Notes: generated by a model not told the origin, from the sequence alone. Positions 3,013 to 20,064 are shown, counted from the first letter of the stretch. The stretch is 64,000 nt of DNA from Patescibacteria group bacterium (GCA_034658935.1 JAYEGE010000008.1:68678-132677); one strand, 5' to 3'. Numbers and translations are program-made.

Positions 3013-4251
3013 ATGCCTAAAACACGTCGAATTAATTTTGATACCGCCGCCGCTACACCACTGGACCCGGCAATCAAGCGAGAGATGAATGCTTATCTAC
3101 GCAGCAATTTCGCTAACCCGTCTGGCTTGCACCAAGAGGGGGTGGCGGCGGCGCGTGAGCTTGCCAATGCCCGTGCGCGAGTGGCTGCCATCCTTGGTGC
3201 TCACTCTGACGAGATTGTTTTCACTAGTGGCGGGACTGAGGCGAATAACTTGGCGGTTTTTGGCGTAGTTGAGGCTCTTGAATCATTTGGACACGCCGTG
3301 TCCAAATCAAGGAAGCCCATTTGGACATGGCGTGTCCAAATGCAGGTGGTTACTTCGGCCATTGAGCACGCCTCGGTATTGGGGGCGGTGCGGGTGCTCG
3401 AGGGGCGGGGAGTGAAGGTGAGTTATCTGTCAGTAAATCGTGAAGGCTTAGTTAATCAAAAAAAATTGAAGACCGCCTTAAATAAAAAAACCAAACTCGT
3501 TTCTATTATTTATGCCCATAATGAAATTGGGGTGGTCCAACCGATCAGGGAGATTGCTAAAATTATCCGTCACCATTGTAAGCGGCATGGGACGGTTTAT
3601 CCTTATTTACATATTGATGCCTGCCAGGCGCCGCGTTTTCTTGACATCAACGTGGCTCGCTTGGGCGTAGACTTGATGACAATCAATGCTGGTAAGATTT
3701 ATGGCCCGCGTGGTATTGGTGCGCTCTACGTTAGGCGAGGTGTCGAGCTTGGGGCGCAATCAGTCGGTGGTAGCCAGGAGGGTGGACGGCGAGCAGGGAC
3801 TGAGAACGTGGCCGGTGCCATCGGCCTAGCCGGGGCCCTAGAAATTTGTGCTAAGGAGCGCGAAAAAGAAGCCAAGAGATTAAGCAAATTGCGCGATCAA
3901 TTAATTGCTGGCTTATTAAAGATTGATGGTGTTGAGTTGAATGGGCCACTGACAGAAAGATTGCCCAATAACGTTAATATTGGTGTTGGTGTCCCTAATC
4001 TAGAAAGTGAACAGGTGGTCATCGAGCTTGATGCCCAGGGCATTGCTTGTTCTACTGGCGCGGCTTGTAGCATTCCTAAACGTGACGGTTCCTATGTTAT
4101 AATGGCTCTAGGCAGAGACGAAGTGGCGGCGCGGAATGCAATTAGATTTACCCTTGGGCGGGAGGCGACGTCGGCTGACGTTAGGCATGTATTAAAAAGT
4201 CTAATAGCAATTTTCAAAAAATATGTACCAAGTCCCATCACTAAAATTTAG
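3013..4251 (+). CDS. cysteine desulfurase (class V aminotransferase, IscS/NifS group I)
   Basis: Has the TSGGTEANNLA motif, a PLP-lysine region and the C-terminal active-site Cys loop (ACSTGAACS). It carries an unusual in-frame palindromic insert at 3285-3343. Confidence 0.9.
   Translation: MPKTRRINFDTAAATPLDPAIKREMNAYLRSNFANPSGLHQEGVAAARELANARARVAAILGAHSDEIVFTSGGTEANNLAVFGVVEALESFGHAVSKSRKPIWTWRVQMQVVTSAIEHASVLGAVRVLEGRGVKVSYLSVNREGLVNQKKLKTALNKKTKLVSIIYAHNEIGVVQPIREIAKIIRHHCKRHGTVYPYLHIDACQAPRFLDINVARLGVDLMTINAGKIYGPRGIGALYVRRGVELGAQSVGGSQEGGRRAGTENVAGAIGLAGALEICAKEREKEAKRLSKLRDQLIAGLLKIDGVELNGPLTERLPNNVNIGVGVPNLESEQVVIELDAQGIACSTGAACSIPKRDGSYVIMALGRDEVAARNAIRFTLGREATSADVRHVLKSLIAIFKKYVPSPITKI
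3285..3343. repeat. tandem pair of about 23-nt palindromes (ATTTGGACACGCCGTGTCCAAAT) embedded in-frame in the desulfurase CDS
   Basis: Copy 1 (3286-3308) is a perfect palindrome. Copy 2 (3320-3342) has one mismatch. The two are separated by 11 nt. Confidence 0.8.
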
Positions 4252-4370
4252 ATATTCTGACTTGGAACCACATATTTTCACCTCATAAATTGGCCGCGGA
4301 TTGAGAGCTTGCTTAATTCTTGAAATTATTGTATCATAGATTAATCAACATATAATCAATTTGTAAAAGA

Positions 4371-5282
4371 ATGGAGGAATTAAATAAAAACCAAATAGTT
4401 CTCTTGACTCTACTAGTTAGCTTTGTCACCTCGATTGCTACGGGCATTGTGACCGTTACTCTTATGGATCAGGCTCCGGCCCCGGTGACTCAGACCATTA
4501 ATCGGGTAGTTGAGCGAACTATTGAAAAGGCGGTCCCCGGCGAGACCAAAATAGAGACGGTCGTTAAGGAGGTCCCAGTAGTGGTAACCGAAGATAAATT
4601 GATTGTCGATGTTATTAACAATACTTCTCCGGGGGCGGTTAGGATTACCGACCTTGAGGGCGAGACTGTGGCGACTGGTTTTATCGCTGATGCAAGCGGT
4701 TTGGTGGCGACTGCCAAGTCCCTACTCATTCCTCTGGCCCCTATCGAGACTATTGATGATGATGCCGCCGGGCTCACAAATGAGGAGGAAGTAGAGATAG
4801 ATGCTGTAGAGGAAGAGACTCCAGAGTCGGAGCCTGCCCCCACTGATTACTTGGTTCACTTTAATAATGGTCAGAGTCTCTCAGCTAAATTACTAGAGAC
4901 CAATGCTGAAGTGGAGGTGGCTCTCTTGAAAGTTGATTTGGGGGAAGTGGCCGATATTGGTCAATTGGCCGGAGTTGGTGGCACCACCAGCAGGCAGCCA
5001 ATAGTTCTATCTCTCACTGACGACGAGCCTTTGCCTGGTCAGACAGTGGTCGCGCTTGGCCTACCAGATGCTGGGCCGATTAATGTCTCTGGAGGTTTGG
5101 TTTCTAGTGTTTACGCTGACGGCGCGGGCGTGACACTAATCGTTACTACTGCCGCCAATGTTAGTAACCTGGGTGGCCCACTCTTCAATACCGATGGTGA
5201 AGTGATTGGTCTCAATCGGTCGGTTGGGTCAGCGATTGGTGCGGAGGCGATTAGACAAGCTATTACTGAAATAAGCACTTAG
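4371..5282 (+). CDS. membrane-anchored trypsin-like (S1C/HtrA-fold) protein, probably catalytically inactive
   Basis: N-terminal TM helix. The C-terminal region aligns to the HtrA protease domain. The conserved GNSGGPL is replaced by SNLGGPLFNTDGEVIGLN (Ser to Leu), and the His region reads ATAKS. Confidence 0.6.
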   Translation: MEELNKNQIVLLTLLVSFVTSIATGIVTVTLMDQAPAPVTQTINRVVERTIEKAVPGETKIETVVKEVPVVVTEDKLIVDVINNTSPGAVRITDLEGETVATGFIADASGLVATAKSLLIPLAPIETIDDDAAGLTNEEEVEIDAVEEETPESEPAPTDYLVHFNNGQSLSAKLLETNAEVEVALLKVDLGEVADIGQLAGVGGTTSRQPIVLSLTDDEPLPGQTVVALGLPDAGPINVSGGLVSSVYADGAGVTLIVTTAANVSNLGGPLFNTDGEVIGLNRSVGSAIGAEAIRQAITEIST

Positions 5283-5297
5283 GCCCCACAATAACTT

Positions 5298-8003
5298 ATG
5301 CCTCCATTCCATAATTTCACTACTAAAGCCAAGGAAGTGATCCGTAAGACTCACGAGTTAGCAATTGAACGTGGTCGAAACCAAGTTGGACCTATCCAGC
5401 TTTTGGCAGCTTTATTGCTCCAGGAGGAGAGCTCTTTTATTTCCATTCTCGATAAAATTGAGATTGACACCGTCATGTTGACTGACCACGTTATCGAGCA
5501 TCTAGATGGCGCGTCAGGTGGTGGCGGAGTTTCGTCAGCTCCCTATCAGATTTACATTACCCCCGAGCTGGTTAAGGTTTTCGAGACCTCAGTTAAGATC
5601 GCCGCTAATTTACAAGACGAGTTTGTTTCCACTGAGCATTTATTACTCGCTTTGCTAGAGACTCCCAATCAAGCTCACGAAATCTTGCAACGCTTCCGAG
5701 TAAGTAAGGACCAGATTTTGAAAGTGCTCCAAGACTTGCGTGACAATAAGGTCCATGAAGTTGATCAGCCAAAAAAGCTCCGGGCAATTGAGCGCTACAC
5801 CAAGAATCTGACCGAAATGGCCAGGCAAGATAAACTCGACCCCGTTATCGGTCGAGAAGCTGAGGTCCAACGTCTGATGGAGATCTTGTCTCGTCGGACA
5901 AAAAATAATCCTATCCTAATTGGAGAGGCTGGCACTGGTAAAACCGCGATTGCTGAGGGTCTAGCTATTAAGATTGCCAAGGCCGATGTTCCTGAATCTT
6001 TGCGAGAGAAGGAAGTAGTTTCCTTAGACTTGGGCTCTTTAATCGCTGGCACGAAGTATCGTGGTGAATTCGAAGATCGGTTAAAGAATGTCCTTAAGGA
6101 AATCGAGCGCTCGGGCAATAAGCTAATTCTCTTCATCGACGAGATCCATACTATTGTTGGCGCTGGTGCTGCCGAGGGGGCGATTGATGCTTCTAATATG
6201 TTGAAGCCAGCCTTGGCGCGCGGTGAACTCCGCGCTATTGGGGCAACTACGCTTAAGGAGTACCAAAAGCATATTGAACGAGATCAGGCCCTGACACGCC
6301 GCTTCCAACCTATCCATGTTGAGGAGCCTAGCGTTGATGACGCCATTGCTATTTTGCGGGGCTTGCAGGATAAGTATGAGTTTCATCACGGCATTCATAT
6401 TACCGATAAGGCCATTGTTGCGGCAGTTAAACTCTCTAGCCGTTATATTACTGACCGCTTCTTGCCCGACAAAGCAATTGATCTTATTGATGAGGCCTCT
6501 TCAGCTTTGCGCTTACAGCTTGAGAGTAAACCTCGCGAGTTGTCCGAGTCTGATATTAAAATTATGCGCCTCGAGGTGGAGAGGGAAGCCCTAAAGAAGG
6601 AGGTGGAAGTGAATAAGGACGCCAAGGCCAAGACCCGAATTAAAAAAATTGATAAAGAAATTAGTGATTTGCGTGAGAAGGTCAGCGAACTCGAACTCAA
6701 GTGGAAGAATGAGAAGGAGACCATTGGTGAGATTAAGACAATGAAGGGTGAGCTAGAGAGCTTGCGACTAGAGGCTGAACAGGCCGAGCTGCGTTCAGAC
6801 TTAGCCAAGGCCGCCGAGATTCGTTATGGCAAGCTCCCAACTATCCAAAAGAATCTGTCTTCACGAGAGACTCGCCTGAAGAAACTCCAACGTTCGCGAC
6901 GCCTACTTAAGGAAGAGGTGAATGAGGAGGAGATCGCTCAAGTGGTTGCTCGTTGGACCCACGTGCCAGTAACTAAGATGCTCGAGGGCGAGGTTGATCG
7001 CTTGGAGAGGATTGAAGAGGAGCTACGGAAACGAGTTCGTGGTCAAGATGAAGCAATCAAGAAAATCTCAGAAGCGGTTAAGCGTTCGCGCGCCGGTGTT
7101 TCTGATCCCGATAGGCCGATTGGCTCCTTCATGTTCTTGGGGCCAACAGGCGTTGGTAAGACAGAACTTGCCAGGGCGCTCGCCGCCTTCATGTTTGATG
7201 ACGAGAAGGCACTCGTCCGGGTGGACATGAGTGAATACATGGAGAAGTACTCGGTCTCTAAGATGATCGGCTCGCCGCCTGGCTATGTTGGTCATGAAGA
7301 AGGTGGGGCGCTTACTGAGACGGTCCGTCACCGCCCTTATTCTGTTCTCCTCTTCGACGAGATTGAGAAAGCTCATCCTGAAGTCTTTAATATCTTCCTC
7401 CAAGTATTAGATAATGGCCGCTTAACTGACGCTAAAGGGCGAGTGGTCAATTTCAAAAATACGATTATTTTGCTGACTTCTAATTTGGGGAGTGAGTATA
7501 TTAATCGTTTGCAACAACGAATCGGCTTTAATCAAAAAGATGGTGCCGAGTTGCCTGATCCAGAAGAGATGAAAGCTAAGATTCATGAGAGCCTAAAGAG
7601 TCATTTCCGTCCGGAGTTTTTGAATCGGCTTGACGACATTGTGATTTTCAATTCTCTTTCGGTAGAGCAGATTAAAGAGATCGTAGATATTCAATTAGAA
7701 TTGGTGCGCGAGCGTCTATCTCATAAATTAATCAAATTAGAAATTACCCCAGAAGCGAGGGGGTATTTGGCTCGCGAAGGTTATAGCGTCGAGTATGGTG
7801 TCCGCCCACTCAAGCGCTTGATCCAGACCAAGGTGCTTAATCAAGTCGCCGAGCTTATTATTGCCCGCAAGATTGATCGCGGTGGGGAGGTTTTGGTGAG
7901 AATGAAAGACGGCAAACTTGTGGTGGAACTAAAGAAAGCCTCCCGCACCCGCCGTGTCCGTTCAACTATCGACTCTCGCCCCGTAGCCGGGGGAGTAAAA
8001 TAA
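5298..8003 (+). CDS. clpB: ATP-dependent chaperone ClpB
   Basis: Two AAA+ modules (GEAGTGKT and GPTGVGKT Walker A) and a long coiled-coil middle domain. The N-domain is ClpB-like. Confidence 0.95.
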   Translation: MPPFHNFTTKAKEVIRKTHELAIERGRNQVGPIQLLAALLLQEESSFISILDKIEIDTVMLTDHVIEHLDGASGGGGVSSAPYQIYITPELVKVFETSVKIAANLQDEFVSTEHLLLALLETPNQAHEILQRFRVSKDQILKVLQDLRDNKVHEVDQPKKLRAIERYTKNLTEMARQDKLDPVIGREAEVQRLMEILSRRTKNNPILIGEAGTGKTAIAEGLAIKIAKADVPESLREKEVVSLDLGSLIAGTKYRGEFEDRLKNVLKEIERSGNKLILFIDEIHTIVGAGAAEGAIDASNMLKPALARGELRAIGATTLKEYQKHIERDQALTRRFQPIHVEEPSVDDAIAILRGLQDKYEFHHGIHITDKAIVAAVKLSSRYITDRFLPDKAIDLIDEASSALRLQLESKPRELSESDIKIMRLEVEREALKKEVEVNKDAKAKTRIKKIDKEISDLREKVSELELKWKNEKETIGEIKTMKGELESLRLEAEQAELRSDLAKAAEIRYGKLPTIQKNLSSRETRLKKLQRSRRLLKEEVNEEEIAQVVARWTHVPVTKMLEGEVDRLERIEEELRKRVRGQDEAIKKISEAVKRSRAGVSDPDRPIGSFMFLGPTGVGKTELARALAAFMFDDEKALVRVDMSEYMEKYSVSKMIGSPPGYVGHEEGGALTETVRHRPYSVLLFDEIEKAHPEVFNIFLQVLDNGRLTDAKGRVVNFKNTIILLTSNLGSEYINRLQQRIGFNQKDGAELPDPEEMKAKIHESLKSHFRPEFLNRLDDIVIFNSLSVEQIKEIVDIQLELVRERLSHKLIKLEITPEARGYLAREGYSVEYGVRPLKRLIQTKVLNQVAELIIARKIDRGGEVLVRMKDGKLVVELKKASRTRRVRSTIDSRPVAGGVK

Positions 8004-11482: not shown

Positions 11483-12338
11483 ACCAAGTCATTTGGCGTT
11501 TGGCATATTGCCAATTAGTGATTTCTAGCTTTCGCAACAAGCTAATTTTCTCGCGTTGGGAATTATTTTGTTGCTTCCGCAAGAAGTCTGCAACGTAACG
11601 ATATTCTAAACCGAAATCATCTAATCTCTGCCAGGAGATTTTTTGTTTAGCGTGCAAGTTTTTCACCTCAGTGGTCAGGCCCCGCCTTAGTCTCTGTTGC
11701 AGTCGTTTGTTTATTTTCTCTTGCAAAATTTGCTTGCCTGGATTGAGGCCAATCCAGAAGGTGTCAAAGATTTGCCCCCCCAAGGACTCTCCTTCTGCAG
11801 AAGGAGAGTCCTTGGGGGGATTGGACGTTCTTGTCGCACTGGCAATCTCAATAGCCCTAATAAGACGACGAGGGTTATGTTTGTCGATATTCTTCACCCG
11901 AGCAGGATCAAGGACCTGGAGTTTTTTAAACAATTTAGTCGCTCGCCATCTCTCTAGTTCTTTTCTCAGTTCCAAATTAGGTGGTATTGCCGGCAAAGAT
12001 AGCTCGTTTAGTGCTGCCTGGATATATAACCCAGTGCCGCCGCAGATAATGGGCAGGTGGCCGCGCTCGGTAATTTCTCGGATTTTTTTCTGTGCCAGCT
12101 TTTTATATTTAGCCACGGTGAATTGCCCTCGCGGACTGGCGATATCAAGTAGGTGATGGGGGACGCCTTTCATTTCCTGTTTAGTGATCTTGCCACTGCC
12201 TATATCTAGGCCACGATAAACCTGGCGAGAATCAGCTGAGATCACCTCGCCATCAAGTTCCTTTGCCAACTCTACTGCCAGACCACTCTTGCCTGAGGAA
12301 GTTGGGCCAACTATTACTAAGACTTTTTGTCTGTCCAT
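11274..12338 (-). CDS. miaA: tRNA dimethylallyltransferase (MiaA)
   Basis: P-loop GPTSSGKS and the conserved DSRQVYRGLDIGSGK motif. It contains a 44-nt perfect palindrome in-frame. Its C-terminal about 70 aa overlap the convergent VKOR gene. Confidence 0.85.
   Translation of the reverse strand: MDRQKVLVIVGPTSSGKSGLAVELAKELDGEVISADSRQVYRGLDIGSGKITKQEMKGVPHHLLDIASPRGQFTVAKYKKLAQKKIREITERGHLPIICGGTGLYIQAALNELSLPAIPPNLELRKELERWRATKLFKKLQVLDPARVKNIDKHNPRRLIRAIEIASATRTSNPPKDSPSAEGESLGGQIFDTFWIGLNPGKQILQEKINKRLQQRLRRGLTTEVKNLHAKQKISWQRLDDFGLEYRYVADFLRKQQNNSQREKISLLRKLEITNWQYAKRQMTWFKRDSQIQWMRDEHPSSSSGQVAKMMPQIKTWRSRRKQYNTDTKRQLQNPGDRENRASQQSREPGERAK
11776..11819. repeat. 44-nt perfect palindrome inside miaA coding sequence
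   Basis: CCCCCCAAGGACTCTCCTTCTG|CAGAAGGAGAGTCCTTGGGGGG, with 22-bp arms and no mismatches. It encodes the same peptide PPKDSPSAEGESLGG on both strands. Confidence 0.9.
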
Positions 12339-12341
12339 TCA

Positions 12342-12413
12342 TGCTCTCGGCAGGAATCGAACCTGCATCACGAGCTCCGGAGGCCCGCGTTCTATCCGTT
12401 GAACTACGAGAGC
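12342..12413 (-). tRNA. tRNA-Arg (anticodon CCG)
   Basis: The reverse complement reads GCTCTCG..CGGGC-CTCCGGA-GCTCG..GCAGG-TTCGATT-CCTGC-CGAGAGC. It lies 4 nt upstream of the miaA start on the same strand. Confidence 0.8.
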
Positions 12414-12579
12414 AAGTCAACCACCCACATATGGAGTCTACCATTGAATCCCGACGTTCGCTTCGCTTCAGTCGGGACCCCGACCCCCATGCAAGGGCGT
12501 CGGGGCTACGAGAGCTTTTGTTGGTTTAGCCTATCAATTTTTTGCCTTTTTGCCCATTTTGGCCTAGAATTTCTTTTGA

Positions 12580-12661
12580 GCCGGGATGGCGGAATTGGTA
12601 GACGCGCACGACTCAAAATCGTGTGGGGCAACCCATGGGAGTTCGATTCTCCCTCCCGGCA
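12580..12661 (+). tRNA. tRNA-Leu (anticodon CAA), class II
   Basis: Acceptor GCCGGGA/TCCCGGC, anticodon arm CACGA-CTCAAAA-TCGTG, long variable arm, T arm GGGAG-TTCGATT-CTCCC. A TAGAAT -10-like hexamer sits about 10 nt upstream. Confidence 0.85.
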
Positions 12662-12709
12662 CTACGAAGTACACAGCACGCCCATCTGTTTATGTGTTAA
12701 AATAGTCCT

Positions 12710-13672
12710 ATGTCAGAAAGTCGTGCTAACGCTGTTTTTTGGATCGAAGTTGATAAGATTCGACCCAACCCCTTCCAACCTCGGAAGGAATTTGACGAGG
12801 ACAAGATCCAGACGCTGGCCGATTCTATTCGCCAATATGGTATTCTCCAGCCTCTAGTTGTGACCCGCCAGGAAGTGTCTCGAGAAGATGGTGGTATTGG
12901 AGTGGAATACGAGCTAATCGCTGGCGAACGTCGTTGGCGTGCCTCTCAGGTCGCTGGGATTTCTCAGGTACCAGCGGTGATTCGTGATAGTGAAGAAAGC
13001 GACAAGCTTAAATTGGAGATGGCGATTATCGAGAATCTTCAACGTGAAGATTTAAATCCAGTAGACCGAGCTCACGCTTTTCAACAATTAACTGAGCAAT
13101 TTGGCCTGAAGCATCATGAAGTGGGTAAGCGGGTAGGTAGGAGCCGTGAATATGTTTCTAATACTATCCGCATTGCCGCCCTTCCAGAAGAAATGCTCCA
13201 GGCCCTGGTGGAGGGGAAGATTAATGAAGGGCATACCAGGCCACTCTTGATGTTAAACGATAGACCCGAGCAACAACTGACCTTCTTCCAAGAGCTCTTA
13301 GTCAAGAAGATGACTGTTCGTGAAGCTGAGTCTATTGCTCGCCGTATTGCTTACGACAAGGTCCGAAAAAAAGACCATCTCATTGACCCACAAATTGTTG
13401 AGATTGAACAGCAATTAACCGAGCAATTGGGAACTCGTGTTCGGGTAGAGCGCAAGGATGTCGGCGGTAAGGTGCTAATAGATTTTTTCTCTCCCGATGA
13501 TCTAAGTGCTATCCTGAATCTACTCTCGGCCAGACAGCAAGTTACCAATCCGGCTCTGGAGCAAGCGGGGTTGGAAGAGTCAGTCGGCGAGGGTGAGGCA
13601 GTTGCCGAGGGGGCCAGCCAACCTGAAGAGGGAGAAGAAGGTCTTTACGATCTCAAAAATTTTTCTATCTAA
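12710..13672 (+). CDS. parB: ParB/Spo0J-family partition protein
   Basis: ParB N-terminal box (GERRWRAS), an HTH region and an acidic C-terminus. Confidence 0.85.
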   Translation: MSESRANAVFWIEVDKIRPNPFQPRKEFDEDKIQTLADSIRQYGILQPLVVTRQEVSREDGGIGVEYELIAGERRWRASQVAGISQVPAVIRDSEESDKLKLEMAIIENLQREDLNPVDRAHAFQQLTEQFGLKHHEVGKRVGRSREYVSNTIRIAALPEEMLQALVEGKINEGHTRPLLMLNDRPEQQLTFFQELLVKKMTVREAESIARRIAYDKVRKKDHLIDPQIVEIEQQLTEQLGTRVRVERKDVGGKVLIDFFSPDDLSAILNLLSARQQVTNPALEQAGLEESVGEGEAVAEGASQPEEGEEGLYDLKNFSI

Positions 13673-13769
13673 TTATTTTCCCAGCTAGTATTGTGCTACC
13701 TTGCTTTAACTATTTAAGGTAACTATCCCATCTCGTTAAGTGGCTAAATGTAGTGGATGATTTTATACC

Positions 13770-13799
13770 TTGACATAAATAGCCTATTCATGATATACT
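13770..13799 (+). promoter_or_regulatory. sigma70-like promoter (TTGACA-18 nt-TATACT) in the AT-rich region upstream of the DGR target gene
   Basis: Consensus -35 and a good -10. It is about 140 nt upstream of the SD-preceded ATG at 13941. Confidence 0.5.
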
Positions 13800-13940
13800 T
13801 CACGCAGTTCTTTCAAATAGGCTTAGAATCTTGAGACTAGCTTTTTGTAGCTCATATCGGGCTCCAAAGAGCCAGTCTCAAGACGAGACAGTCGCTTACC
13901 CACAGCGTTTGTGGGTGATTTAACAAAGGGAGGTATAACG

Positions 13941-14756
13941 ATGACGATTCGATCGATCACGCCCAACCGAACCCAGAGGCAAGAGAAACAGTACAAGCGA
14001 TTCGTCGGGGATGCGGGTGACCGCGGACTCGTCGAGGTGGATCCTGACAAGGACGCTATTCAACGGCTCATTAGTCGTGGCGGCGAGTTCCAGGGCCACC
14101 TGATCGCAGGCATTCGCCGGTTCTCGGCCGAGCAGACCGACTACACGCACGCGCAGTCTATCCTCGGTACGGACTTTATCATTCCCGAGGAGGTCATGGA
14201 AGCTCGTTCCGGCATCACCTACGCCGGCAGGCATCTGGCCTTCCTGGCGGAGACGATGCCGAGCGAGGAGAATCTGCGGTGGTGCAAGGACAACGGCTAC
14301 GCCGTCATGCCGGCACCGCCTAAGCCGATTGCACTTTTGCCCGTCCGTGCCCTCAAGCCTGCCAACTTCTATCTGAAGACCGGTGGATGGTATGCGGATG
14401 AAAGTGAGAAGTTTGCCTCAAGCGACAAGACCCGTCGGGGATGGCTCGCGGTTCGCAAGACCCTGGTGCCGAACTCGACCTCAAAGACTTGGGACGAACA
14501 AAACGAGCTCCTCTCGAGTGTCGAGGAGGTACCGAATGCGGCCGAGATGGCGTGGTTTATCACCACCTACTTCGACGTCCGTGGCATTCGTCTTTTCGAG
14601 GACATCTGGGTTCGTACTTCTAGCGTCGACTCGGACGGTAACCATGTCGACGTCGGCCATTTCGGCCAGGACGGTCTCCACGTCGGCGACGATTGGGATG
14701 ACGGGCGCAGTGGCAACGTCGGTGTGTCCTCTGCTCGGAAGTTTTCTGAGCCTTGA
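13941..14756 (+). CDS. DGR target (variable) protein with C-terminal variable repeat
   Basis: Strong SD (AAGGGAGG) 7 nt before the ATG at 13941. The last about 42 codons are the VR matching the downstream TR. The gene is GC-rich relative to its surroundings. The fold was not identified; the ligand-binding region may be C-type-lectin-like (inference). Confidence 0.75.
   Translation: MTIRSITPNRTQRQEKQYKRFVGDAGDRGLVEVDPDKDAIQRLISRGGEFQGHLIAGIRRFSAEQTDYTHAQSILGTDFIIPEEVMEARSGITYAGRHLAFLAETMPSEENLRWCKDNGYAVMPAPPKPIALLPVRALKPANFYLKTGGWYADESEKFASSDKTRRGWLAVRKTLVPNSTSKTWDEQNELLSSVEEVPNAAEMAWFITTYFDVRGIRLFEDIWVRTSSVDSDGNHVDVGHFGQDGLHVGDDWDDGRSGNVGVSSARKFSEP
14620..14744 (+). repeat. DGR variable repeat (VR)
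   Basis: 125 nt matching TR at 15213-15337 with 13 mismatches, 11 of them at TR adenines. The 3' 35 nt are identical to TR and are IMH-like. Confidence 0.85.
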
Positions 14757-14757
14757 G

Positions 14758-14771
14758 CCGCCAGCTGGCGG
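14758..14771 (+). promoter_or_regulatory. GC hairpin downstream of VR (CCGCCAG|CTGGCGG)
   Basis: Perfect 14-nt palindrome 14 nt after the VR end, just past the stop codon. It is positioned like the stem-loop that promotes DGR homing in phage BPP-1. Confidence 0.55.
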
Positions 14772-15212
14772 TCTGGAGGGCTTGAGCCTCTTGGATTCTT
14801 GACCCGTCTGACGAACCTTGTCTAGCCCGTGCCGACGGCACGTCGGCCTAGGGAGCCTCCGCGCAAATTTTTCTACCAGGGATATTTGCCGGAGGCTCTT
14901 TTTATTTACCTACATATCACTTATAATACAGATATCTTGCTCATGAAGGCTAGATTACGGTTTAGTCTCGCGAGATGTCTCATCTTTGAGATCGCCAGAA
15001 TGTTTGCGTTTACGCCTGCCTGCTGGCAGGCAGGGATTCAAGCAGAGCGCGAAAAAGATAGGGATTTAACTTCTTGCTCGTTTCTAGCAGAGGTTTTTTG
15101 TCTTTAGGCAAGAGATGCTCTCGAATAAAATACAGGAAGGAGAGGACATAGGGATTGGGCTTTTGTCTACCCACAAACCTCGGCTTCTAGTGGCACAGAC
15201 GGAAACGGGCAA

Positions 15213-15337
15213 CTAGCGTCAACTCGGATGGTAACCATGTCAACGTCGGCAATTTCGACCAGGACGGTCTCAACGTCAACGACTATTGGGATGACAAGCG
15301 CAATGGCAACATCGGTGTGTCCTCTGCTCGGAAGTTT
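15213..15337 (+). repeat. DGR template repeat (TR)
   Basis: Intergenic A-rich copy of VR. In the VR frame it reads as a run of AAC/AAT codons (SVNSDGNHVNVGNFDQDGLNVNDYWDDKRNGNIG). It is not part of any ORF. Confidence 0.85.
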
Positions 15338-15369
15338 CTTCTCTACTATAAACGCCTCTTTCGGGGCGT

Positions 15370-15726
15370 TTAGTCTTTCTGTTGTTTGGAGGATTTAATC
15401 CAGCCACCAAGCATTCGTCCGATTTCATCCATAATTTCTTGGAGGGAGGTGTATTTCATGACATCGATGGATTTTGTGTCATGCGAGAGTCTGGCAAAGA
15501 TGCGAAGTAAGTTAAGCTTGATACTTACTTTATTCAAAACTGGCACCTTTTCAGTTCTAGGCATCGATGTTGCTTGTAGGATTCCCTCGATAATATCAAG
15601 CGAGGTATCTTCGCATCTCTGCCACAACGTATGTCTGTCTTGTTTAGGAACGGAAGCGCGGATATGATGTACAGTTTTATACAAATCATACACTTTTTTG
15701 AAAATCGGTATATCAAATTCATCCAT
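15370..15726 (-). CDS. avd: DGR accessory variability determinant (Avd), four-helix-bundle protein
   Basis: 118 aa. The C-terminal GRMLGGWIKSSKQQ closely resembles Bordetella phage Avd (GRILGSWIARVNRKGQ). It is adjacent to the TR and the RT. Confidence 0.75.
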   Translation of the reverse strand: MDEFDIPIFKKVYDLYKTVHHIRASVPKQDRHTLWQRCEDTSLDIIEGILQATSMPRTEKVPVLNKVSIKLNLLRIFARLSHDTKSIDVMKYTSLQEIMDEIGRMLGGWIKSSKQQKD

Positions 15727-16787
15727 GAGAACATTTGAACATATTTACAATCTGATAATTTCTCCCGAGAGCCTTTTCATTGCTTGGAAACGATTTAGCA
15801 GAGATAAACACAAAAAGAAAGATGTTCTGCAATTCGAGTGGAATTTGGAGCAAAACATTTTTGCATTGTGCCGAGAGCTGAAAAACAAAGTCTACCAGCA
15901 TGGACCATATACTGATTTTTACATTACTGACCCCAAACAACGACACATCCACAAGGCACTCGTTCGGGACAGGGTATTGCACCATTCGATTGTCCGCATA
16001 CTCACTCCGATCTTTGAACCAACATTTATCGCTAATTCTTTTTCTTGTCGAATTGGTAAAGGAACACACAAAGGAGTATTGATGGTGGAGAAAATGTTGC
16101 GCACGGTGAGTCGAAATAACACTAGAAGTTGCTACGTTCTTAAATGTGATATCAGGAGATTTTTTGACTCCATTGACCATAATATCCTGCTCAAAATGTT
16201 GGAGCAAAAAATTAAAGACCCAGCCGTGATGTGGCTCTTGGAAAGAATTGTCAGCAGTTACGAGAGAGAGGGAGAGAGAGAGGAAAAATTGCGCGGGGAA
16301 AGGGATACCCGTTGGCAATCTCACCTCCCAATTGTTTGCGAATATCTATATGAACAAGTTCGATCAGTTTGTAAAGCATGAATTGAGAACAAAATATTAC
16401 GCACGATATGCGGATGATTTCGTAATTATAGCAGATAATAGAGAAAAACTCGAGCGACTGGTGGTGCAAATCACAAACTTTCTTTCGGGCCAATTGGCGC
16501 TTTCGTTGCACCCGCATAAAGTTTCTATACAGGCATATACTTGCGGGGTAGATTTTCTGGGACAAATTATTTTTCCACATTACCGTCTACTTCGCGCCAA
16601 GACAAGAAAGAGAATCTTCAAGCAAATTAGACGTAAGGTTGAGCGATGCAACGATGGTTTAATTTCAGAGAAAACTTTGCACCATTCACTACAATCGTAT
16701 TTGGGCGTTCTCTCACATACCAATACATATGGGGATCTCAAGGAATTAAAAAATCAGGTTTGGTTTTGGTCCATAAAGGATAATTAG
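15725..16787 (+). CDS. DGR reverse transcriptase, reading frame interrupted in a (GA)n tract near 16262-16283
   Basis: The N-terminal part (15725-16381) has GPYTDFYITDPKQRHIHKAL and CRIGKGTHKGV. The second frame (16248-16787) has GKGIPVGNLTSQLFANIYMN and YADDFVII. The IGxxxSQ motif is diagnostic of DGR RTs versus group II intron RTs. Confidence 0.85.
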
Positions 16788-16876
16788 GGGGCCCTTGTTG
16801 TCTTAAATGAGCAAGTGGTGAGGGGTTTTGGTGCCTTCCCCTCCTTCGCTAAAGCTACGGTAGGACTGCGGCACTA

Positions 16877-19105
16877 CTACTTTGTTAATTTATGCGGATT
16901 ATGGTTTGGACAAGATTTGCTGCTACATCTCTCGGGGATCGTTTTTGTGCCTTGCATCATTAGGGAGCCGCACATGGTGCAGAGGGCGCCGGTTGGCTTG
17001 GCCTTGATGGCGTTCTTACAGGTGGGGTAATTGGAACAAGAATAGAAGATACCGAAACGTCCACGTTTCTCGGTCATCTCGCCCGTCTGACTTATCCCCG
17101 ACAAGCCTTTTTTGCAGACTGGACATTTGACACCAGTCCTTTTGGCCTCTTCAGCAGCTTCATCTTTCTTTATGTATTTACATTTTGGATAATTCGCACA
17201 AGAGACAAAGGTGCCGAAACGTCCTTCGCGCTCAACGAGTTTTCCATTTTTGCACTCAGGGCAAGCCTCACCAGTTTCTTTGGGGGCCATTTCCTTACCT
17301 TCAAGTGTCTTGGCACCAGTACACTCTGGGAATTTAGCGCAGGAATAGAATTTGCCTGAGCGGCTCAATTTGATAATCATCGGGCCATCGCAGGTTGGAC
17401 ATTTCATATCATCAGGCGCTTCACCAAGATTGGTGATCTTTGGCATCTTCTTCTTGGAGGCGATCTCGAGAGTGAAGGGGCCGTAGAAATCTTTCAGAGT
17501 TTTTACATAGTCGCGTTTGCCGTCGGCGATCTCGTCGAGCTCGTTTTCCATCTCGCTAGTGAAGGAGTCGCTGATATAAGAGGCGAAATTATTTTCCAAG
17601 AACTCGCTTACAACATCACCGGTCTCAGTCGGCTTCAGGCTCCGGCTCTCTTTATCAACATAGCCACGGTCGATGATGGTCTTAATAGTTGGTGCGTAGG
17701 TAGAAGGTCGGCCAATGCCGCGCTTCTCCAGCTCTTTTACCAATCCCGCTTCAGTGTAGCGATTGGGCGGCAGGGTTTCCTTGCCCTCGCTATTTATTTC
17801 CTTTAGATCGAGTGTCTCACCTTCTTCAACCACAGGTAATTCTGTTTCTTCGCCTTTGGCCGCCGGATCAGCTTTGAGCCAACCATCGAAGGTGGTTATG
17901 GAGCCGTTGGTTTCGAAGTTCGGCAGGGCCGCGGTTTTAACATCTGATGTTTTGACCGCGGCAGCAATTATCAATTTTGTTCGCTTAATTTTGGCGTCAC
18001 TCATCTGGCTAGCCACGACACGCGACCAGATCAATTTATAGAGTTTTTGTTCCTGCGGTGTTTTGCCGGCGCTACTTACGTTGGCATGAGATGGTCGTAC
18101 TGCCTCATGGGCTTCTTGGGCACTCTTAGATTTTGCGGCGTAACGACGTGTTTGTAGGTGGTCGGTACCAAATTTGTCTTTGACTACTCTAGCAATTTCA
18201 CCCAAGGCCTGTTGGCTTAGGTTAGTGCTGTCGGTACGCATATAGGTGATATGCCCGGCCTCGTAGAGTTTTTGAGCTAAGCGCATAGTAATAGAGGGGG
18301 AGTAACCTAAGCGTGACGAGGCCGCTTGTTGGAGGGTGGAGGTAGTGAAAGGTGGGCGCGGTGAGCGTTTGGCCTCGGTTTGCTTCACTTCCTTAATTTG
18401 CCATTTAGCTTTTTTGGCTTCAGTAACGATTTGCTCAGCTTCTTCACCCGCTTTCGGTTCTTCTGTGCAATGGGCCGGAAGCTCCTCCTTCTTGCTTGTC
18501 GCAAATAGTCCGTCGATTACCCAGAACTTCTCTGGGATGAAGGCGCGGATTTCTCGCTCGCGCTCAACCAAGATGCGGAGGGCGGGGGACTGAACGCGGC
18601 CGGCCGAGAGGCCATAGCGGAGCTTCTGCCATATTAGCCCAGACAGGTCGTAGCCGAAGAGTCGGTCAAGGACTCTCCTTGCTTCTTGGGCCTTCAATAG
18701 ATCCTCATCGATATCGCGTGGGTGCTTCATTGCTTCTTGCACTGCCCCCTCGGTGATTTCGTTGAAGGTGATCCGCTTGGTCTTAGATTTAGGTAATTTT
18801 AAGACTTCAGCGACGTGCCAGGCGATGGCTTCTCCTTCGCGGTCAGGGTCTGTGGCCAGGACTATTTCCTCCGCCTTTTTTGCCTTTTCTTTAAGTTCAG
18901 AAACGATCTTCTCTTTACCTTTGCTGATTTCGTAATGAGGAATAAAGCCGCCCTCGATATCGATGGCGTTCTTGTTTGATTTTGGTAAGTCGCGGACGTG
19001 CCCAACTGAGGCACGGACTGTGTATTCGTTATTTAAATATTTCTCAATTGTCTTCGCTTTGGCGGGCGACTCAACAATTAATAATTTGTTTGTTTTGTTT
19101 GGCAT
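16877..19105 (-). CDS. topA: DNA topoisomerase I
   Basis: TOPRIM start MPNKTNKLLIVESPAKAKTI, the catalytic core and multiple C-terminal Cys4 zinc ribbons. The start is taken at the internal ATG (19105) of the longer ORF. Confidence 0.9.
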   Translation of the reverse strand: MPNKTNKLLIVESPAKAKTIEKYLNNEYTVRASVGHVRDLPKSNKNAIDIEGGFIPHYEISKGKEKIVSELKEKAKKAEEIVLATDPDREGEAIAWHVAEVLKLPKSKTKRITFNEITEGAVQEAMKHPRDIDEDLLKAQEARRVLDRLFGYDLSGLIWQKLRYGLSAGRVQSPALRILVEREREIRAFIPEKFWVIDGLFATSKKEELPAHCTEEPKAGEEAEQIVTEAKKAKWQIKEVKQTEAKRSPRPPFTTSTLQQAASSRLGYSPSITMRLAQKLYEAGHITYMRTDSTNLSQQALGEIARVVKDKFGTDHLQTRRYAAKSKSAQEAHEAVRPSHANVSSAGKTPQEQKLYKLIWSRVVASQMSDAKIKRTKLIIAAAVKTSDVKTAALPNFETNGSITTFDGWLKADPAAKGEETELPVVEEGETLDLKEINSEGKETLPPNRYTEAGLVKELEKRGIGRPSTYAPTIKTIIDRGYVDKESRSLKPTETGDVVSEFLENNFASYISDSFTSEMENELDEIADGKRDYVKTLKDFYGPFTLEIASKKKMPKITNLGEAPDDMKCPTCDGPMIIKLSRSGKFYSCAKFPECTGAKTLEGKEMAPKETGEACPECKNGKLVEREGRFGTFVSCANYPKCKYIKKDEAAEEAKRTGVKCPVCKKGLSGISQTGEMTEKRGRFGIFYSCSNYPTCKNAIKAKPTGALCTMCGSLMMQGTKTIPERCSSKSCPNHNPHKLTK

Positions 19106-19200
19106 GTACTTGTTAGAGCACATTAGTACTATGTATCCACATTTTTTGCAAATAGAAGATAGAAAAGGCCGCCCCGAAGTGGGGCGGCTGACGTTTCCGT

Positions 19201-20064
19201 TCATCCAAAGTATTCTTGTCGCGGTGGGCCGAGGCGAACAAGTTCGCAGAGCTTGGCTAAACCGGCAAGGAGGGTTAATTGATCGGTTCCCGCATCAATA
19301 TTGTGTGAGGATAGTGTGTAGCCTCTGTCCGGCCTCTCCGCCCCCATTGCTCGGCGATCTTCTCCCGGCCCAAGGGTGCAGGCGCTACCCGGTATTCGTA
19401 ACATAAGCCATTTTCCTCGCTGACACGATGCCTCGAAATCCCAATGACGGCCTGTATGCGGGGTGCCTGTAGAACACATCTTGGCATCAGCCTGGATCAT
19501 GGCAAGCTTGATGGGGATCAGGCGTGCTTCGTCGGGGCAATGAGCTAACCACCGAATTATAGCAGGCGATAGATCGACATCGAAGCCGGCAGCTTCCCTG
19601 CCGATTCCTGCACCTAAGCCGTTAATGAGCAGGAGTTGGTTGCCGGTGGCGCCGGTGTTACCTTCCCAATACAATAGGTTCCCGAGAAGGAGTTCCAGGG
19701 TGGAGCGAATGCATCGCATTATCGTCAAGCCTTTGACTCTGGCTTTGTCTGGAGAATGGATAGTCAATAGGGTGGGCAATTCAAAATTCCAACCTTGCCA
19801 GTTTTCGGGATCATCCTCTTCCATTGGTGAAAGCACCTCGCTGAAACCCCATGCCCGGCTTTTTTCAGGTGGTACGAAGTCGGGCAAATCGAATCGTTCT
19901 TGCCGATGTCTGATTCCGGCTGCACCAGAGCGTAAGTAGCTAATCAATGCAGGCCAGACTGCCCAATGAATTCTAATCCCGATTGTTTGCCCCTTGGACC
20001 CAAGAGTTAACTCATACCAAGCCGGACGGTCCTGGCGAACCAAGGCCGTAGAGTTTATGGTCAT
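19201..20064 (-). CDS. hypothetical protein, GC-rich relative to neighbours
   Basis: 287-aa ORF with no recognisable family. Possible Rossmann-like GLGAGIG. It is followed by its own hairpin plus T-run terminator at 19140-19187. Confidence 0.5.
   Translation of the reverse strand: MTINSTALVRQDRPAWYELTLGSKGQTIGIRIHWAVWPALISYLRSGAAGIRHRQERFDLPDFVPPEKSRAWGFSEVLSPMEEDDPENWQGWNFELPTLLTIHSPDKARVKGLTIMRCIRSTLELLLGNLLYWEGNTGATGNQLLLINGLGAGIGREAAGFDVDLSPAIIRWLAHCPDEARLIPIKLAMIQADAKMCSTGTPHTGRHWDFEASCQRGKWLMLRIPGSACTLGPGEDRRAMGAERPDRGYTLSSHNIDAGTDQLTLLAGLAKLCELVRLGPPRQEYFG

Follow-up and report, generated by a model that had tools for sequence, protein, structure and literature searches.

Analysis of a 64,000-nt stretch of DNA from a Patescibacteria group bacterium (GCA_034658935.1, JAYEGE010000008.1:68678-132677; below, the window is this whole stretch) revealed, at positions 13770-16787, a diversity-generating retroelement (DGR) of the clade characteristic of Patescibacteria (candidate phyla radiation, CPR), which comprises a target gene, a variable repeat (VR), a template repeat (TR), an inverted avd gene, and a reverse transcriptase (RT) gene. 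The RT gene is broken by a frameshift at a GA-rich tract, and the same site is occupied by a polymorphic repeat across the clade. This frameshift, missed in a first-pass annotation of the same DNA, is the unusual trait of the cassette, rather than its placement on the chromosome. In our interpretation, the window probably carries the OFF allele of a reversible slipped-strand (simple-repeat) switch and not a decaying gene. A broader proposal, to which we assign about even chances, is that (i) in a sizeable subset of patescibacterial DGR RTs, a hypermutable (GA)n repeat in a surface loop just ahead of the GNLTSQ motif acts as a stochastic ON/OFF switch, most alleles, including that of the window, being OFF, and (ii) in the template RNA, the large structured domain that binds protein is placed on the 5' side of the TR, as a permuted counterpart of the Bordetella Sp element.

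The interrupted RT gene extends over positions 15725-16787 of the plus strand, with the N-terminal part encoded in the frame 15725-16381, the C-terminal part in the frame 16248-16787, and an overlap of the two frames at 16248-16381. Positions 10-100 of the RVT_1 domain are found in the first frame and positions 111-205 in the second one, which corresponds to a +1 shift; the C-terminal part contains PVGNLTSQ, YADD, and the thumb. The RT with an IGNLTSQ motif described in the first-pass annotation is indeed of the DGR type, as judged by the RVT_1 domain and by its closest relative of known structure, the Bordetella RT (bRT), but the motif reads PVGNLTSQ and the gene is not a single intact reading frame. 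When the two parts are fused, the resulting 354-aa protein can be aligned over its full length with over 7,500 homologs, the best match being 64% identical. Among the matches listed, nearly all homologs are single open reading frames (ORFs) of about 340-390 aa, mostly 349-350 aa, and those that bear names come from Patescibacteria metagenome-assembled genomes. The window RT differs from known CPR DGRs in being out of frame at a GA repeat. The broken frame weakens the assumption that the element is currently active, not its assignment as a DGR.

The frameshift coincides with a (GA)4-GG-(GA)5 tract at 16262-16281 on the plus strand (GAGAGAGA-GG-GAGAGAGAGA), followed by A5 and G4 runs. Addition of one GA unit, or deletion of 1 nt anywhere in 16255-16299, yields an ORF of 353-354 aa. 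The two GA runs of the tract are two of just four GA/CT tracts of at least four units in the 64 kb, and the RT segment that bears them is a loop absent from bRT. The position of the break within simple sequence, where indel errors concentrate, would also suit a sequencing or assembly error, with an intact RT and a 1-nt or 2-nt discrepancy caused by the low-complexity A5, G4, and GA runs. However, the Logan assembly of SRR26901924, produced by an independent assembler, shows 100% identity with the window across 9,130 nt, frame break included, and the remaining long ORFs across the 64 kb are uninterrupted; therefore, an error of this kind is very improbable. The same phenomenon is moreover seen in 57-64 other contigs from many projects, short tracts included.

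The site of the tract is variable throughout the clade. In genome loci, RT residues ~184-191 are encoded by (GA)8 in L009, (GA)15 in L072, (GA)9 in L074, (GA)4 in L065, and G9 in L064, and (RE)n or (ER)n occurs at this place in seven of the 120 top-ranking RT proteins. A scan of metagenomes for the pattern (GA)6, a 3-33-nt spacer, and a sequence coding for the GxPxGNLTxQ motif revealed at least 120 contigs with (GA)6 or longer at the RT site, the lengths ranging over (GA)6-25. The reading frame was determined for 80 loci fetched from these contigs, eight of which were checked by eye. By the ORF criterion, 16 loci are in frame and 64 are out of frame; tblastn assigned 14 of the same 80 loci as in frame and 57 as out of frame (33 at +1 and 24 at +2). 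Of the 50 out-of-frame loci that are not cut by a contig end, 49 have an N-terminal part open over 170 aa or more, and the C-terminal part runs 140-200 aa to its stop codon in 46 of 57; since both halves of the RT are open, the tract is the only lesion in these loci. The bias towards OFF alleles also holds for tracts with n<=10 (40 OFF versus 12 ON), which are so short that they are unlikely to be misassembled. As a separate observation, many tracts in the loci L090-L169 are directly followed by GTAA, so that one of the three frames ends at TAA right after the repeat; this may bear on the products of out-of-frame alleles.

Out-of-frame RT genes are accompanied by VR/TR pairs that retain the mutational signature of the system: mismatches fall on TR adenines in 355 of 386 cases (92.0%) beside OFF RTs and in 135 of 146 cases (92.5%) beside ON RTs. 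Three contigs allow a direct comparison of alleles. The tract is (GA)9 and in frame in L123, and it is (GA)8 and out of frame in L091 and L136, with 400-nt flanks 100% identical in all three. Across their cassettes, the only differences between L123 and L091 are one GA unit, 19 VR positions, 18 of which correspond to TR adenines, and a single base elsewhere, whereas the VRs of the two out-of-frame contigs, L091 and L136, are identical. Together, these differences give the picture of slipped-strand phase variation.

Contingency loci, in which phase variation proceeds by slipped-strand mispairing, are established in Neisseria, Haemophilus, and Campylobacter. The RT tract resembles them in several respects: a dinucleotide repeat, with a unit that is not a multiple of three, lies inside an ORF, in a loop tolerant of length change; in-frame and out-of-frame alleles occur naturally; and near-identical relatives differ by one unit. 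Those loci control surface structures or restriction-modification enzymes, whereas the gene controlled here would be the RT of a mutagenic retroelement, in hosts that are uncultivated Patescibacteria, and the tract in the window is short and interrupted. Switching by the window's own tract would thus follow by analogy with its longer relatives.

Several points weigh against this interpretation. A short, interrupted tract should slip far less than the (GA)8-25 tracts of the relatives. Both the tract and the VR of the window are known from two consensus assemblies, and the excess of OFF alleles among the relatives is likewise consensus-level evidence from a metagenome set picked for long tracts. 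The 90% cluster of the target protein has one member, hence there are no recorded VR variants of this protein. Two of the 13 VR/TR mismatches in the window are off adenines (15% versus an average of ~8% in relatives), which fits drift after inactivation, although this point is softened by the fact that such mismatches are often found in CPR DGRs (PMC5758913). Finally, slippage at the level of the transcript or the ribosome would produce the same pattern in the DNA.

Most of these points would also be expected of a dead relic, in which an ordinary inactivating frameshift has struck the RT, nothing is diversified any longer, and the VR/TR pattern preserves the trace of earlier activity. Both assemblies have the RT out of frame, reversion of such a tract would be rare, one of the two mismatches off adenines is synonymous, and the target protein cluster has its single member. 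Several features argue against a relic: there is only one lesion, with both RT halves open; avd, the TR, the hairpin 3' of it, and all 50 base pairs of the RNA leader described below are intact; the lesion sits exactly at the polymorphic GA site of the clade; and VR/TR specificity is undecayed in the out-of-frame relatives. On this balance, we regard a dead relic as unlikely, though it deserves to be kept in mind.

Recoding at the level of expression, with the DNA out of frame and the frame restored in a fraction of products by RNA polymerase slippage or by a ribosomal +/-2-nt slip on GAGAGA, is somewhat less likely still. A slip of 2 nt within this repeat leaves the codons unchanged, a small amount of full-length RT would be made from any allele, and such recoding could coexist with switching at the DNA level. 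The frames of the tract-bearing relatives are roughly comparable in number (14, 33, and 24), as expected if the DNA frame is unselected, out-of-frame cassettes look functional, and GC hairpins with UUCG-type loops follow some of the tracts. Against recoding, near-identical contigs differ in the length of the tract in their DNA, the VR differs between L123 (in frame) and L091 (out of frame) and is the same in L091 and L136 (both out of frame), and the window tract has just 4+5 units. A conserved frameshift-stimulating hairpin 3' of the tract was considered and rejected as a general feature, since the spacer is heterogeneous (3-32 nt) and only about 20 of the 80 loci have a stem of 6 bp or more. 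We continue to favor a DNA-level switch that is OFF in the window.

The assignment of the cassette as a DGR rests on the RT, the repeats, and Avd. Some RT homologs are named 'retron-type' or 'group II intron reverse transcriptase/maturase', as they might be if the enzyme were the RT of a group II intron, of a retron, or of a defence system and the repeat were coincidental. Comparison of the RT family profile with proteins of known structure gave the Bordetella bRT (8ub7) as the best match (1e-59, 205.5 bits), about 90 bits ahead of the next one, a group II intron RT (1e-31), with retron RTs at 1e-5 or worse; the RT thus belongs to the DGR lineage, is closest to bRT, and carries a motif of the [IV]GxxxSQ type, and this profile search speaks against a placement with group II intron or retron enzymes, the outcome that would have refuted the first-pass annotation. 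No RT-associated, group II intron, or retron RNA family was detected at 12000-17500 with Rfam 15 (E<=1), and adenine-specific VR/TR pairs together with bAvd are present across about 60 related loci. A group II intron or retron identity is thereby refuted, and we consider that the element being something other than a DGR has almost no probability.

The VR (14620-14744, plus strand), located at the 3' end of the target ORF, and the TR (15213-15337, plus strand), non-coding and containing 31 adenines, form an ungapped 125-nt direct repeat with 90% identity, the VR being the sole partner of the TR in the window. The VR's end and the TR's start are separated by 468 nt, in good agreement with the repeat of about 125 nt and the distance of 470 nt proposed previously from inspection of the sequence. 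Alignment also bore out the proposed adenine specificity: of the 13 mismatches, 11 are at TR adenines (9 A>G and 2 A>C) and 2 at TR thymines, and the hypergeometric probability of at least 11 of 13 mismatches falling on 31 adenines among the 125 TR bases is p=2.5e-6. This adenine-specific pattern implies at least one past homing event. The mismatches affect codon positions 1 or 2, except for one synonymous T>C, and the adenine sites typically lie within AAC/AAT codons. The final 26 nt of the VR (14719-14744) are identical to the TR, which resembles the boundary formed by an initiation of mutagenic homing (IMH) site; no distinct IMH* is present.

The target gene (13941-14756, plus strand) encodes 271 aa from ATG, or 281 aa from GTG at 13911. 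The C-terminal ~125 residues of its product adopt a C-type-lectin/FGE-like fold, and the VR, as the 3' end of this gene, lies inside the C-type-lectin-fold domain. The N-terminal ~140 residues are helical and without any match; no Pfam domain was found in the protein, and neither a signal peptide nor a membrane segment was noticed by eye (no predictor was run). The protein has no sequence similarity to the DGR variable proteins TvpA (2y3c), Mtd (1yu0), and TaqVP (5vf4). As in CPR DGRs, it is a small target protein without a recognisable domain and with a C-terminal VR. The GC content of the target gene is 59-62%, versus 39-40% for avd and RT (15370-16787) and 49% for the whole window, and a similar excess was observed in 38 of 41 relatives (with medians of +16 points relative to the RT and +14 points relative to the flanks). 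Because the parts of the cassette travel together, horizontal transfer does not explain this excess.

The 118-aa product of avd (15370-15726, minus strand) belongs to the bAvd family (PF22296; E=1.9e-17, 64 bits with a cut-off of 40), so that the Avd homolog of this length named in the first-pass annotation stands up to a profile check, with the addition that it is encoded on the minus strand. A phmmer search of PDB sequences with Avd gave no meaningful match. The start codons of avd and RT (15725) are back to back at 15724-15727 (CATG) with a 2-nt overlap; there is zero intergenic DNA at this junction and no evident Shine-Dalgarno sequence for either gene, and the gaps in relatives are 0-25 nt. 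The promoters of the two genes must sit inside the coding sequence of the partner, and their mRNAs may be leaderless.

The layout of the cassette is that of its clade. In 77 of about 80 related loci, avd is located on the strand opposite to RT and abuts the RT start; the TR is on the RT strand just past the 3' end of avd; and the VR is mostly ~500 nt upstream of the TR, although certain loci contain two or three VRs or carry one on the opposite strand. Adenine-biased VR/TR pairs were found in about 60 of the related loci. This arrangement corresponds to sub-architecture B3, which makes up 90% of the CPR DGR set of Wu et al., where several non-adenine substitutions are also frequent (PMC5758913). 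Because the B3 layout and non-adenine substitutions are typical of CPR DGRs, we regard the inverted avd and the two mismatches at T sites as family traits. The window cassette thus shares with CPR DGRs (B3, PMC5758913; clade 2, PMC8144416) its host group, its cellular rather than phage setting, the order of TR, inverted avd, and RT, and the occasional non-adenine mismatches. The elements previously listed as a complete canonical DGR are real, but the set is not canonical in three respects: the RT is out of frame, avd is inverted (B3 and not the Bordetella order), and the hairpin after the VR is unsupported.

Other loci of the clade vary in copy number and neighborhood. A Paceibacterota contig (L025) contains two clade DGR cassettes, at 941-2892 and 4002-6038, about 3 kb apart, each equipped with a separate RT and A-biased TR/VR pair. 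No second VR, RT, or target paralogue was found in the 64-kb window. The closest RT relative (L002/L003, 64% identical) has the same cassette layout, and its neighbors are a serine recombinase, an rve-family integrase, a SNase-domain gene, and DNA methyltransferases, a neighborhood in which recombinase and integrase genes abound, unlike the housekeeping setting of the window.

The second part of our broader proposal concerns the region between the target gene and the TR. A -10-like box, TATAAT at 14922-14927 (plus strand; consensus TGnTAtAAT), forms a conserved column block in alignments of 45 and 57 sequences; its -35 element is weak, which is why it was missed by the promoter scan, and we infer that the TR RNA is transcribed from this box. 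It precedes a structured non-coding leader of about 275 nt (14938-15212, plus strand), with helices at 14938-14972, 14992-15052, 15089-15121, and 15135-15139 paired with 15184-15188, and a long-range 12-bp helix formed by 15074-15085 and 15201-15212, which ends 1 nt before the TR. RNAalifold analysis of 57 loci gave 8 helices with 50 base pairs in total; compensatory changes occur in 43 of the pairs, and all 50 are standard pairs in the window copy. In the alignment, 94.5% of the cells are paired, versus 38-51% after displacement of the partners by 1-3 columns; covariation amounts to 0.77, versus at most 0.195; and none of 500 shuffles reached the observed values. The many conserved G-U pairs indicate that the structure is specific to the plus (TR) strand. 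When 38 independent tract-bearing loci were searched with a sequence-only nhmmer profile, the leader was recovered in 22, its distance from the RT start being constant at ~525 nt. The Rfam 15 search over 12000-17500 had no match to the leader or to the other non-coding elements of the cassette at E<=1 and returned only two tRNAs. The VR-TR spacer of 350-470 nt is conserved among relatives.

On the other side of the TR, 11 nt after its end, a terminator scan located a hairpin (15349-15372) with a 9-10-bp stem and a tetraloop (z=-6.9), whose stem includes the avd stop codon and which is preceded by an A-rich and followed by a T-rich sequence. A locus-by-locus search showed that the same position is occupied in about 54 of 57 relatives by hairpins that are unrelated in sequence, have 7 or more pairs, and mostly have loops of 4-5 nt. 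By its placement, it can be predicted to serve as an Avd-binding stem-loop, a bidirectional terminator, or both. An Sp-like element antisense in avd was also considered and dropped, as RNAalifold analysis of the segment from this hairpin to the RT start yielded no consensus structure for either strand. Pairing of a conserved segment after the TR, TTCTTCTCT, with the GAGAG block of the leader was sought by eye and showed no covariation.

These RNA features can be compared with those of the DGR of Bordetella phage BPP-1 (mtd-VR, avd, TR, Sp, brt). The two systems share the RT family (167.7 bits for the fused window RT), the [IV]GxLTSQ and Y[AM]DD motifs, an accessory protein of the bAvd family, TR-to-VR transfer that is specific to adenines, a VR domain with the C-type-lectin fold, and, immediately following the TR, a stem of 9-10 bp with a tetraloop. 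In Bordetella, bRT-Avd is enveloped by RNA located mainly on the 3' side of the TR (Sp); an Avd-binding stem-loop comes right after the TR, and complementary DNA (cDNA) synthesis is halted by the duplex that an upstream avd segment forms with Sp (Handa et al., bioRxiv 10.1101/2023.10.23.563531; 8ub7). In contrast, the large structured RNA of the present cassette is upstream of the TR, whereas Sp is downstream of it, and no conserved structure was found downstream of the window's TR hairpin; a distinct IMH/IMH* pair is lacking, the GC hairpin after the VR is unsupported, the setting is chromosomal and not phage, and avd is inverted. By analogy, the large RNA scaffold would appear to have moved to the 5' side of the TR in this clade, and the leader helix abutting the TR could take the role of the cDNA stop.

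In the mechanism that we propose, largely by homology to the Bordetella system as regards the RNA, cDNA, and VR-replacement steps, transcription from the conserved -10 box would give a non-coding RNA of ~440 nt, composed of the ~275-nt leader, the 125-nt TR, and the 3' hairpin. The TR would then be copied into cDNA by RT and Avd with misincorporation opposite adenines, and the cDNA would replace the VR, thereby recoding ~11 surface codons of the C-type-lectin-fold C-terminus of the target. Gain of one GA unit would restore the RT.

Additional non-coding elements are associated with the target gene. A promoter-like site upstream of it (13770-13799, plus strand: TTGACA, 18 nt, TG-n-TATACT) matches the consensus in 11 of 12 positions, although the number of such sites in the region is no higher than in shuffled sequence. 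The predicted 5' untranslated region (UTR) contains a hairpin at 13829-13883 (plus strand), an inverted repeat TTGAGACnAGC ... GCTnGTCTCAA with a DNA fold of -15.6 kcal/mol (z=-4.7), for which RNAalifold of 24 relatives gave 16 pairs, 15 with compensatory changes; it may regulate the variable protein in cis, and another small hairpin (13900-13925) follows it.

Downstream of the VR, CTTGA repeats at 14752-14802 (plus strand) include exact copies at 14752, 14781, and 14798 and additional degenerate copies, the first copy overlapping the target stop codon. From one to five exact copies, often 8 nt apart, follow the VR in 59 of 64 VR flanks of relatives, including second and third VRs of multi-target loci; the repeats were not seen after TRs. 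They are candidates for a mark that may tell VR from TR and direct the cDNA to the VR. The GC hairpin that the first-pass annotation placed just after the VR is present as a palindrome, CCGCCAGCTGGCGG (14758-14771), but it folds no better than shuffled sequence (z=-0.22), and it is not conserved there in relatives, in which the CTTGA repeats are the conserved element instead; an inverted repeat downstream of the VR is found in just 34% of DGRs (Wu et al., PMC5758913). Further downstream, the target gene is followed by an intrinsic-terminator-like hairpin (14853-14907, plus strand; GAGCCTCCG...CGGAGGCTC and then a T run; -15 kcal/mol, z=-5.5), and the same GCCTCCG...CGGAGGC-TCTTTT element is found 3' of the CTTGA repeats in many relatives.

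The cassette is flanked by parB (12710-13672) on the left and topA (16877-19204, minus strand) on the right, as proposed before. The parB-side flank comprises clpB, a dsbA-like gene, VKOR, miaA, two tRNA genes, and parB; the topA-side flank comprises topA, an ORF described below, dprA, a GH15 gene, and the genes for RNase R and ribonucleotide reductase. NCBI labels the proteins of the window 'Patescibacteria group bacterium'. Three relatives with ParB proteins 69-71% identical retain the order clpB-dsbA-vkor-miaA-parB-...-topA-dprA-serS, and their parB-topA gaps contain no DGR, just 0-3 small unrelated ORFs. The same synteny without the cassette indicates that the DGR is an insertion in a variable parB-topA gap. 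Taken with the adenine pattern, bAvd, the bRT-like RT, and the C-type-lectin-fold VR domain, these cassette-free relatives support the earlier suggestion of a chromosomal DGR that diversifies a cellular protein. In contrast, the placement itself, singled out earlier as noteworthy, is not unusual, because, according to Roux et al. 2021 (PMC8144416), DGR clade 2 occurs only in Patescibacteria and almost always in a cellular setting. Both the cassette and its position between housekeeping genes are ordinary for Patescibacteria.

Some further features of this neighborhood were observed. A 287-aa ORF without a Pfam match and with a raised GC content of ~55% (19201-20064, minus strand) lies between topA and dprA; relatives have there a 44-aa ORF, a PaaX-like gene, or two small ORFs, and thus this place is a second variable slot of the conserved block. 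The two tRNA genes between miaA and parB are at 12342-12413 (minus strand) and 12580-12661 (plus strand), and the ORF calls that cover them (12263-12857) can be discarded as spurious.

Three features lift the cassette above a routine DGR: the proposed GA-tract switch, the structured leader on the 5' side of the TR, and the repeats flanking the VR. In a limited literature search, which did not include Paul et al. 2017, we found no description of the GA tract, the ~275-nt leader, the CTTGA repeats, or the target 5' UTR hairpin in CPR DGRs, and a limited search likewise gave no link of DGRs to phase variation or simple repeats. The covarying 5' leader provides a concrete RNA for reconstituted CPR DGR reactions, and it points to other possible arrangements of the RNA scaffold known from the Bordetella cryo-EM structure. 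If the proposed switch is real, surveys that demand an intact RT ORF undercount these elements, since about 80% of the tract-bearing set would be scored as broken. An RT switch would also speak to the largely unknown topic of cellular limits on DGR activity: a contingency locus would gate a targeted hypermutator, so that at any time only a random subpopulation would diversify the target, a form of bet-hedging on mutagenesis itself.

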